A stretch of DNA of 35,120 nt from a virus (Duplodnaviria > Heunggongvirae > Uroviricota > Caudoviricetes): IMG/VR virus record IMGVR_UViG_2778261168_000003, one strand, 5' to 3'. The translations under genes were made by a program, and so were the position numbers. This document shows positions 8,897 through 10,548 of this stretch, in pieces; positions within the stretch are counted from its first letter, which is position 1; every line of letters starts with the position of its first letter. The notes under the pieces are model-generated. The model was given only the letters and a program-made list of their open reading frames with translations. It ran no database searches and had not been told where the DNA came from.

Positions 8897-9811
8897 ATGC
8901 CATACCAATTGGTAGAGCTTAGCCCCGTAGCTAACGATCTTGAACAGTTAGGAACCAAAGAGAAGTTTTGGTTCTATTTCTCCGATGACACTGTAAATTT
9001 GCAGTTGTTTAAGTACTCTAGGCCAGGTACTGGCGAGCATTGGTCTGAAAAGTGTGCTGCTGAGTTATGTCATTTGCTTAACATTCCACATGCTAGCTAT
9101 GATTTGGCGCGATACAATGGTCGATTCGGTGTGGTGACTCAGAATATCATTCCATCTGGTTTCCGGATGGTAATGGGAAATGAAGTGCTTCACAGTTCGA
9201 CATTCGATTATCCTGGGCCTTTACAAGCCGGGGAAAAGCCGGTAAGGGTCAGAGAACACACTGTCACAAGGGTATTGGGTTGTTTAGATAGGGAATCTAT
9301 CAAGCCTCCTCCGAGTGTATATGATCTAACCGGGCTAAATGCAGCAGATGTATTTTGTGGATATTTGATGCTCGATGCACTTGTGAGTAATCAAGATCGC
9401 CATCATGAAAATTGGGCGATCATGCTTAACAATGAAACTGGTGAGCAGTTTTTGTGTCCAACATACGATCATGCCGCTAGTTTAGGAAGGGAGATGTTAG
9501 ATGATGAGCGTAACGAACGGCTTAATACTAAAGATAAAAATCGACAAATCCCATGTTTTGTAAGAAAAGCTCGCTCTGAGCTATTCAAAGCAAAAACTGA
9601 TAAAAAGCCCTTGCTGACCGTTGAAGCATTTCAACATGCAGTTGAAGGGAGAGTTGCCGCTCGCGACCATTGGTTAGGTAAGTTGAGCGTTTTAACAGAA
9701 GATTCCATTACAGATGTGTTTAACCAAGTGCCTTCATCGTGTATATCCGACAGTGCACGTAGATTTGCAACGTTAATGGTAATGGAAAATCGCAGAAGGT
9801 TACTAGAATGA
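8897..9811 (+). CDS. HipA/HipT-like Ser/Thr kinase, core domain only
   Basis: 304 aa; Gly-rich loop-like LGTKEKFWF near the N-terminus, catalytic-loop-like DRHHENW (HipA DxHxxN pattern) and YDHAAS (Mg-binding Asp region); lacks the HipA N-terminal subdomain. Confidence 0.6.
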   Translation: MPYQLVELSPVANDLEQLGTKEKFWFYFSDDTVNLQLFKYSRPGTGEHWSEKCAAELCHLLNIPHASYDLARYNGRFGVVTQNIIPSGFRMVMGNEVLHSSTFDYPGPLQAGEKPVRVREHTVTRVLGCLDRESIKPPPSVYDLTGLNAADVFCGYLMLDALVSNQDRHHENWAIMLNNETGEQFLCPTYDHAASLGREMLDDERNERLNTKDKNRQIPCFVRKARSELFKAKTDKKPLLTVEAFQHAVEGRVAARDHWLGKLSVLTEDSITDVFNQVPSSCISDSARRFATLMVMENRRRLLE

Positions 9812-10548
9812 CTAATACAAACTCCGTTTACGTCGCATGGCAGGCACCAGATACCAGAGACTGGCATGTTGTTGGTAACTTGCAAGAGCGCAAATCGGGG
9901 TATGTTTTCAGGTATACCAAAGGTGCTCTTAAATCTACTAAATTTACAAAGTTTAGCGGCATGAGTGATGTTCGTGAAACTTATGTTTCGGAAGAATTGT
10001 TTCCTCTTTTTAAAAATCGCCTTTTATCACCGAGACGTCCAGAGTATCCGAGTTTCATTAAATGGCTTGGATTTGAAGAAGATAAGGTAAATCCTATCGA
10101 TATTCTTGCTCGCTCGGGAGGCTTACGAAGCACTGATCAGCTGCAGATTTTCAAAAAAATTGATGTTGATTCTGATGGTAACTTTGAGCATTTTTTCTTC
10201 TTACATGGACTTGGTTACTTAAATAGCTTAGCTAATGCTCGTGTATCTGAATTGAAACCGGGGCAAATTTTGCGTCTTTGCTTGGATCTTCAAAATGAAT
10301 ACGATGGGGATGCTGTTGTCGTTCGTGCAGATAAACCAGCTGAAATCGTTGGTTACTGCCCTAGGTATTTAAGTAATGATATCAAGAAGATGTTATTGGA
10401 TGATCCAAAATCAATCACTTTAACGGTCGAAAAGATTAGCGATGATGCTCCTCATAACTATCGGTTATTATGTAAATTATCAGGAGTACTAAGCCAAGCC
10501 TGTCAATCGACGCTGATTCCTCAGGATGAGTTTGAACCTATTGAGTAA
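9808..10548 (+). CDS. HipS-like (HipA N-subdomain) plus HIRAN-like domain protein; putative partner or antitoxin
   Basis: ATGA-overlapped with the kinase. N-terminus (VYVAWQ...VVGNL...YVFRYTKGAL...ELFPLFKNRLLSPRRPE) resembles the HipA N-terminal/HipS motif (LV.W...VG.L...F.Y...FNFFDNLLPEG). C-terminus (NEYDGDAVVVRADKPAEIVGYCPRYLSNDIKKML) fits the HIRAN pattern (N.YD.NAI.V...IGYLPR). Confidence 0.55.
   Translation: MTNTNSVYVAWQAPDTRDWHVVGNLQERKSGYVFRYTKGALKSTKFTKFSGMSDVRETYVSEELFPLFKNRLLSPRRPEYPSFIKWLGFEEDKVNPIDILARSGGLRSTDQLQIFKKIDVDSDGNFEHFFFLHGLGYLNSLANARVSELKPGQILRLCLDLQNEYDGDAVVVRADKPAEIVGYCPRYLSNDIKKMLLDDPKSITLTVEKISDDAPHNYRLLCKLSGVLSQACQSTLIPQDEFEPIE

Follow-up and report, generated by a model that had tools for sequence, protein, structure and literature searches.

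The hipIN module described here is a pair of overlapping genes carried by a 35,120-nucleotide stretch of Caudoviricetes DNA (IMG/VR record IMGVR_UViG_2778261168_000003), which as a whole is referred to as the window and which represents a complete 186/P2-like prophage of Escherichia coli. The first gene, hipI (8897-9811, plus strand), encodes a protein of 304 amino acids that is predicted to be a HipA-superfamily Ser/Thr kinase core without N-subdomain-1, and the second gene, hipN (9808-10548, plus strand), encodes a protein of 246 amino acids in which a HipS-like domain is predicted to precede a HIRAN domain. This is exactly the architecture for which hipIN (HipI kinase and HipN) was defined (Gerdes, Baerentsen and Brodersen 2021, mBio, PMC8262856), and the module almost certainly belongs to this family, since both PADLOC models of the system match and since gene order, protein sizes and domains all fit the published description. 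The interpretation that is moderately favoured here is that the module is accessory cargo in a cos-proximal defence hotspot, and that HipI would be a toxin which is restrained by HipN and which, upon a trigger received by the HIRAN domain, would bring about abortive infection. The evidence that bears on this interpretation consists of the domain identities, the conserved motifs, the strict linkage of the two genes and their location in a hotspot with known defence systems.

The hipIN family is already described in silico, and the copy in the window is identical to RefSeq proteins. The architecture has been named and catalogued as hipIN, as PDC-M03 in PADLOC, which lists the pair as a phage-defence candidate under a name that is also used in other genome papers, and in two supplementary tables of a survey of phage-borne hotspots. 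Table S5 of this survey, which covers P2-hotspot loci, contains WP_001146828 and WP_000185757, which are these exact proteins, and Table S6 labels a Vibrio homologue 'HIRAN-kinase' (Rousset et al. 2022, PMC9122126). In PHROGs both cassette proteins fall into families of unknown function, a scan of NCBIfam gave no meaningful match for either of them, and the hipIN system is not mentioned by Kieffer et al. or by Payne et al.

HipI contains the three motifs LGTKEKF (residues 18-24), DRHHENW (residues 167-173) and YDHAAS (residues 190-195), and the Gly-rich loop G19-T-K-E-K23, the catalytic loop D167-R-H-H-E-N172 and the Mg-binding D191 within them are invariant in 24 homologues with identities down to 57%. 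We take the D167 and D191 motifs, from published knowledge, to be equivalent to D309 and D332 of HipA. The PADLOC model PDC-M03A matches HipI from end to end (residues 2-304, E 2e-122). The Pfam family HipA_C (PF07804) matches residues 154-225 only, with 20.7 bits and an E value of 3.6e-4, below the gathering score of 30.5, and a precomputed PF07804 match is present in many homologues of 57-84% identity. When a HMMER profile of the 24-sequence alignment was compared to the PDB sequences, the sole match was CtkA (E 1.6e-3), to whose catalytic region the catalytic loop and the Mg-binding aspartate of HipI align. The AlphaFold2 model of HipI (predicted local distance difference test, pLDDT, 83; predicted template-modelling score, pTM, 0.85) likewise has CtkA as its best Foldseek match (E 4e-10, TM 0.69/0.73), followed by HipA (3DNT, E 8e-7) and HipT (8EZR/7WCF, E ~1e-4), so that the folds next to CtkA are those of HipA from E. 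coli and Shewanella and of HipT from Legionella. The kinase domains of the PI3K-like kinases ATM and VPS34 appear further down among the significant matches, which reflects a shared fold. Judged by its predicted structure, the product of the first gene is a HipA-superfamily kinase core without N-subdomain-1. A manual alignment of the Gly-rich loops places E16, which is invariant, where HipA (S150) and HipT (S57) have their regulatory serine that becomes autophosphorylated, and this residue may be a built-in phosphomimic or may merely point to a different regulation.

HipN is matched over the whole gene by the PADLOC model PDC-M03B (E 3e-93). Its putative kinase-neutralising part is the HipS-like domain of approximately residues 1-115 (9808-10152), and HipS is the counterpart of N-subdomain-1 of HipA. 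The HIRAN domain spans residues 127-228 (10186-10491) and is recognised by Pfam HIRAN (PF08797) with an E value of 1.1e-13 and 51.3 bits, above the gathering score of 24.7, while the match to Couple_hipA, the HipA N-terminal domain, is sub-threshold (residues 20-72, E 0.018). Among 91 diverse representatives of the HipN family, which share about 30-60% identity, a HIRAN match is found in 88 and a Couple_hipA match with E<=0.01 in 20, the best of which reaches 3.5e-7. The AlphaFold2 model of HipN has a pLDDT of 88.7 and a pTM of 0.84; Foldseek relates its N-terminal half to HipS of the E. coli HipBST system (7AB3_E, E 1.9e-3, TM 0.71 normalised to HipS) and its C-terminal half to the HIRAN domain of HLTF (4XZG/4S0N) and to lp_0118 (3K2Y), both at an E value of about 4e-5. 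The model thus describes HipN as a HipS fold joined to a HIRAN fold.

At the sequence level the HIRAN structures are reached only with the diverse 91-sequence HipN profile. A narrow HipN profile found nothing real among the PDB sequences with HMMER, and searches with single sequences of the HipN halves returned designed Kelch-like repeat proteins and integrin beta-4, which were discarded as chance or repeat artefacts. In the 91-sequence profile the motif Q-N-x-Y-D-x-x-A is aligned to N-N-P-Y-D-K-N-A of HLTF and G-Y-x-P-R to G-H-L-K-K, and in the profile alignment to HLTF and 3K2Y the residues N163, Y165, D166, G182 and Y183 of HipN correspond to N91, Y93, D94, G109 and H110 of HLTF. In the HLTF structures of 2015, those of Kile and of Hishiki, these residues reportedly form a pocket around the 3'-OH end of the DNA. 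With the exception of Y165, the pocket residues of HipN are conserved in at least 90% of the representatives, and from this alignment the HIRAN domain of HipN appears to keep an intact pocket for a 3'-OH end.

Much of this had been anticipated by the original prediction, which was made from the DNA sequence alone and described two ATGA-overlapped genes in an AT-rich insert between a cos-like site and the portal gene. Both open reading frames (ORFs) exist, and the ATG of hipN (9808-9810) lies over the TGA of hipI (9809-9811) in an overlap that spans 9808-9811. The three kinase motifs had been named correctly, and the claims that the first protein is a HipA-family kinase without the N-terminal subdomain, that the second begins with a segment resembling this missing subdomain and that it ends in a HIRAN-like module are all in agreement with the predicted folds. 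Of the profile matches that it had proposed to look for, HIRAN exceeded its gathering score, whereas HipA_C and Couple_hipA did not, and these two weak matches were settled by the predicted structures.

The linkage of the two genes was followed in 80 loci, taken from one genome per species in Gammaproteobacteria, Cyanobacteria, Deltaproteobacteria, Acidobacteria, Planctomycetes, Clostridia and candidate phyla (loci are cited below by L numbers). DNA downstream of the kinase gene is available in 79 of them, and in all 79 a HipN homologue follows directly on the same strand; an intact kinase gene without hipN was not found among these informative loci. In four loci (L020, L021, L046 and L058; kinase region at about 8000-8950 in those of full length) the kinase gene is split into two ORFs by a frameshift or a stop codon beside an intact hipN. 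That the kinase gene is found split where hipN is intact, and never the converse, is what one would expect of a toxin-antitoxin pair, and it fits the decay of a toxin gene. Three of the split-kinase loci are from metagenome bins, where sequencing error is possible, and one is from the isolate Marinomonas rhizomae. Clustered at 50% identity, the HipN family amounts to 310 clusters at E values below 1e-30 and to 1,612 at E values below 1e-3. Many Nostoc genomes carry hipIN at a fixed chromosomal site without an obvious mobile element, and there the same gene of 325 amino acids follows hipN on the opposite strand (approximately 9600-10800, minus, in L049, L056, L059, L061, L063, L075 and L078). 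A PfkB carbohydrate kinase match was obtained for five scanned neighbours, which are probably these Nostoc genes, the summary of the scan not being given per ORF.

Within the prophage, the cassette occupies a gap of 1.8 kb between the cos site and the stop codon of the portal gene (10583-11623, minus strand; TIGR01540, E 9e-114), which is convergent with hipN. The left boundary of this cargo slot is the core of the P2/186-like cos site (8726-8745, GGCGTGGCGGGGATACGAG). Positions 8694-8752 are 98% identical to the first 59 nucleotides of Escherichia phage Cartapus, which are annotated as a putative cos site with homology to that of P2, in Salmonella phage SEN8 the end of the linear record falls at approximately position 8725 of the window, and the homology to the P2-like phage backbone ends at 8755. 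By homology to these annotated phage records the cos site is real. A presumed 19-mer of the P2 cos site was not found in an exact or near-exact search with up to three mismatches. The GC content is 0.405 over positions 8756-10582, compared to 0.53 in the gpA gene and 0.55 in the portal and terminase genes, and at third codon positions (GC3) it is 0.37 and 0.32 in the two cassette genes, compared to 0.57 in gpA. By its composition the cassette is foreign cargo.

That the gpA-cos-gpQ region is an anti-phage hotspot in P2-like phages is backed by experiment (Rousset et al. 2022, PMC9122126). In Klebsiella phage 4LV2017 the slot between cos and portal is taken by the effector and the reverse transcriptase of retron St85, and across cos the slot of sister prophages holds a pair of SIR2 and DUF87 ATPase genes, a gene of 175 amino acids, a gene of 289 amino acids, or nothing. 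The cassette itself is present at an identity of at least 99% in 21 of 5,426 complete E. coli genomes; in the assembly index, 3,818 blocks contain a kinase sequence identical to this one. The ten of these sites that were inspected are all 186-like prophages or remnants in which the cassette lies directly after cos, and in nine of them the portal gene is next to it, the structural genes of the tenth (L083) being deleted. The hipIN genes are kept in three heavily deleted 186-like remnants (L083, L086 and L090), and in L083 hipN is followed by ogr and the chromosomal flank, which suggests that the hipIN cargo outlives its phage.

Temperate phages of a second kind also carry the module. In PM2-like (Vinavirales) prophages of Vibrio cyclitrophicus, which are about 14 kb in size, hipIN adjoins the integrase gene. 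A hipIN homologue whose kinase is 37% identical is found at positions 6935-8649 of Vibrio phage 10N.222.46.E12_PE001 (L094), a temperate element of 14.6 kb. Since hipIN is present in both 186-like and PM2-like prophages, it is carried as cargo by temperate phages of two viral realms, Duplodnaviria and Varidnaviria.

Several characterised or catalogued systems can be compared to the pair. The published hipIN modules have a kinase of about 300 amino acids (279-321) encoded first, with a Gly-rich loop close to the N-terminus, and a downstream gene whose product combines a HipS-like domain with HIRAN, in a proteobacterial and cyanobacterial subclade; the present copy shows no structural difference from them and is distinct in occupying a defined cos-to-portal slot of a 186-like prophage. 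The single-chain relative HipL has all three of these domains, likewise in this order, on one polypeptide instead of two overlapping genes (both described in PMC8262856). In the HipBST system of E. coli O127:H6, which consists of the kinase HipT, the antitoxin HipS and the repressor HipB (PDB 7AB3), N-subdomain-1 is also supplied in trans, and the N-terminal domain of HipN matches the HipS fold. Unlike HipBST, the present pair lacks HipB, has the kinase gene first and has a HipS-like domain fused to HIRAN in a protein of 246 amino acids rather than a standalone HipS of about 100. The loop of HipT reads S-I-S-G and that of HipI E-Q-L-G-T-K-E-K, so that the autophosphorylation serines of the S-psi-S motif are absent from HipI, and no sequence similarity of the cassette proteins to HipT or HipS was detectable with HMMER against the PDB. 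CtkA of Helicobacter pylori (JHP940, PDB 3AKJ/3AKK) provides the closest solved structure and has a HipA-like core of about 300 amino acids, but it is a proinflammatory kinase according to its PDB entry and shares only about 15% identity with HipI; we know of no HipS-HIRAN partner of CtkA. The HIRAN domains of HLTF and Rad5 have the same fold as that of HipN and likewise show the 3'-OH pocket motifs N-x-Y-D and G-H/Y, but in eukaryotes they are joined to a SWI/SNF ATPase and a RING ligase that act in fork reversal, whereas HipN joins its HIRAN domain to a predicted kinase-binding domain. HipAD (DS-6, PDC-M66) is a validated anti-phage system of a HipA-like kinase and a DUF3037/DUF1829 protein, in which defence is lost when the DS-6A kinase is mutated at a residue predicted to be catalytic or the kinase gene is deleted, and in which deletion of the partner gene is toxic (PMC13092281, PMC12548924). 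It resembles the present pair in combining a HipA-family kinase with a partner other than HipB, but this partner, a predicted DNA binder, is unrelated to HipN and has neither a HipS-like nor a HIRAN domain.

It is proposed that HipI is an active Ser/Thr kinase of the HipA superfamily which would be toxic when free and, by analogy with HipA (GltX) and HipT (TrpS), would phosphorylate an essential translation factor. In uninfected cells HipN would keep HipI inactive, its HipS-like domain docking beside the Gly-rich loop in the manner of HipS on HipT. In HipBST, HipS neutralises HipT and has Trp65 wedged beside this loop (PMC10627512). The HIRAN domain of HipN would serve as the sensor and bind free DNA 3' ends that arise from the entry of a phage genome, from replication or from DNA degradation. 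Binding of such an end would then release or re-orient HipN and free HipI, and the resulting growth arrest or abortive infection would protect the lysogen population. That HipI is toxic and is neutralised by HipN, that DNA ends are the trigger, which substrate is phosphorylated and that a defence phenotype results are steps that we infer, and they do not all carry the same weight. That the kinase is a toxin which is neutralised by HipN is considered likely and an anti-phage role of hipIN fairly probable, while a DNA-end trigger is a tentative suggestion; the full proposition, that the HIRAN domain recognises the 3' ends of phage DNA as it comes in or replicates and thereby switches on HipI, with its PI3K-like fold, as an immune signal, is rather doubtful. 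The original prediction had read the pair as a toxin-antitoxin or abortive-infection module with a nucleic-acid-sensing partner. This reading is plausible and is the same hypothesis as that published for hipIN, according to which HIRAN senses the DNA ends of invading phages and turns on the kinase to cause abortive infection (PMC8262856).

A number of observations weigh against a defensive toxin that is restrained by its partner. The N-subdomain of HipA belongs to the active enzyme, and a HipS-like domain therefore need not inhibit. The HipA_C and Couple_hipA scores of these two proteins are under the gathering thresholds. No ORF for a helix-turn-helix (HTH) protein such as HipB adjoins the pair, the ORFs of at least 40 amino acids in 8553-8896 looking non-coding, and operator-like inverted or direct repeats were not seen in 8700-8900; because there is neither an HTH partner nor an operator-like repeat, regulation of the pair is unlike that of hipBA and hipBST. 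Outside the enterobacterial prophages, the neighbours of hipIN (122 ORFs from 31 loci) belong mostly to housekeeping or unrelated families. Defence matches are scattered among them (GmrSD, PDC-M05, Pycsar cyclase, HEC-05 and PRTase-like), and no general defence-island enrichment is claimed for hipIN. A HIRAN entry is absent from Table S2 of Rousset et al., which lists the systems that were evaluated or cloned (PMC9122126), and a literature search on hipIN, HipN and PDC-M03 found no experimental study, in line with the caution of the original prediction that the architecture may not have been characterised experimentally.

Three other explanations have to be set beside the one favoured here. 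In one of them, which is unlikely, HipI and HipN constitute an addiction or stabilisation module of the toxin-antitoxin type that punishes loss of the prophage by post-segregational killing and plays no role against other phages. The organisation of the genes and their translational coupling would suit such a module, and so would the retention of the cassette in the degraded prophages L083, L086 and L090, which are short of most structural genes; moreover, plasmid-partition genes are present at this hotspot in about one P2-like phage out of four, so that its cargo is not all defensive (PMC9122126). Simple addiction offers no obvious role for a HIRAN sensor domain, however, and it has to contend with modules at conserved chromosomal sites outside mobile elements, such as those beside PfkB in Nostoc, and with the defence against phage that is provided by the related HipAD module. 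The chances are slimmer again that HipN is an obligatory targeting or activating subunit, whose HipS-like domain completes the kinase, in the way that N-subdomain-1 does in HipA, and whose HIRAN domain brings the holoenzyme to DNA 3' ends, where it phosphorylates DNA-bound replication and recombination proteins of phage or host. Natural HipL proteins, in which kinase, HipS-like domain and HIRAN are joined (PMC8262856), agree with this idea, as do the homology of HipS to an integral part of active HipA, the compactness of the HipN model over both domains (pTM 0.84) and the fact that the gene pair is never separated. Against it, HipS is inhibitory in HipBST, the only characterised split system (PMC10627512), and loci with a split kinase and an intact hipN are better explained by a toxic kinase.

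The least probable explanation is that the pair acts as a persistence-type growth brake under DNA damage or replication stress, in the service of the lysogen or of the induction decision, with HIRAN sensing the 3' ends of forks that have stalled or regressed instead of phage DNA. The classic persistence kinase is HipA, the eukaryotic HIRAN domain of HLTF recognises the 3' ends of stalled forks (as cited in PMC8262856), and the cassette lies close to a DinI-like gene in an SOS-inducible 186-type prophage with a CI repressor. The DinI gene, however, belongs to the conserved backbone and is present whatever the cargo, and the hotspot location together with the occurrence in two unrelated temperate phage lineages points to inter-phage conflict.

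The remaining features of the window are those of a 186/P2-like prophage. The integrase gene (1-1095) and the gene of the 186-type CI repressor (1411-1986) are on the minus strand and are followed by the genes for a Dam methylase (3847-4764), the replication endonuclease gpA (4761-7175) and a DinI-like protein (7456-7761). Beyond the portal gene lie the terminase gene (11620-13386, minus strand) and then P2-type capsid, lysis and tail genes. A candidate sigma-70 promoter (8787-8815, plus strand; TGGACA-17-TATCAT) is located about 80 nucleotides 5' of hipI and has 10 of 12 consensus matches; sigma-70-like sites are no commoner here than in shuffled sequence, and it is thus a candidate only. Between the convergent hipN and portal genes, a GC-rich hairpin with A4 and T4 on its flanks (10555-10578, AAAAGCCACCAAACGGTGGCTTTT) can be read from the sequence and is likely to be a bidirectional terminator; its T-run is short, and a consensus scan for terminators did not call it.

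Further variable loci are present in this phage lineage. Upstream of the cassette, the slot between DinI and cos, which is itself variable, holds a gene of 243 amino acids and unknown function (7821-8552, plus strand). Its product has an N-terminal hydrophobic stretch ending in 'LTGC' that resembles a lipoprotein signal, and it is a member of phrog_1353 (unknown function) without a Pfam or PADLOC match. In the sister prophages L084, L086, L088 and L090, positions 1-1260, at the junction of int and CI, encode a KAP_NTPase or a SNIPE/T5orf172/MUG113 protein, which points to this junction as a third variable locus. A second AT-rich insert (18953-20645, minus strand; GC 0.34-0.37) is found at the P2 'orf30' position, between gene S (tail completion) and gene V (baseplate), where a sister prophage has just 69 bp. 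Its ORFs of 401 amino acids (18953-20158) and 151 amino acids (20190-20645) have no Pfam, PADLOC or PHROGs match, and the insert is present in 10 of the 5,426 complete E. coli genomes, where it is annotated as hypothetical. This insert may represent phage cargo of an uncharacterised kind, or else a candidate for defence.

The hipIN family is large, with members in many phyla and in no fewer than two viral realms, and no member has a demonstrated function. The E. coli copy would be a convenient model, as it is tractable, resides in a well-studied prophage hotspot and has identical proteins in thousands of public assemblies. With this copy it could be asked whether a HipA-type kinase takes part in immunity, whether a HipS-like domain neutralises it and whether HIRAN is a sensor of foreign DNA ends. 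If phage DNA ends recognised by HIRAN do switch on HipI as an immune signal, HipIN would be without precedent among demonstrated defence systems in having HIRAN for a sensor and would be, in its logic, a minimal prokaryotic analogue of the signalling from a DNA end to a kinase that is typical of ATM and DNA-PK. A negative result would correct the widely propagated database prediction PDC-M03, whereas with a positive one bacterial immunity would gain a new principle of sensing.

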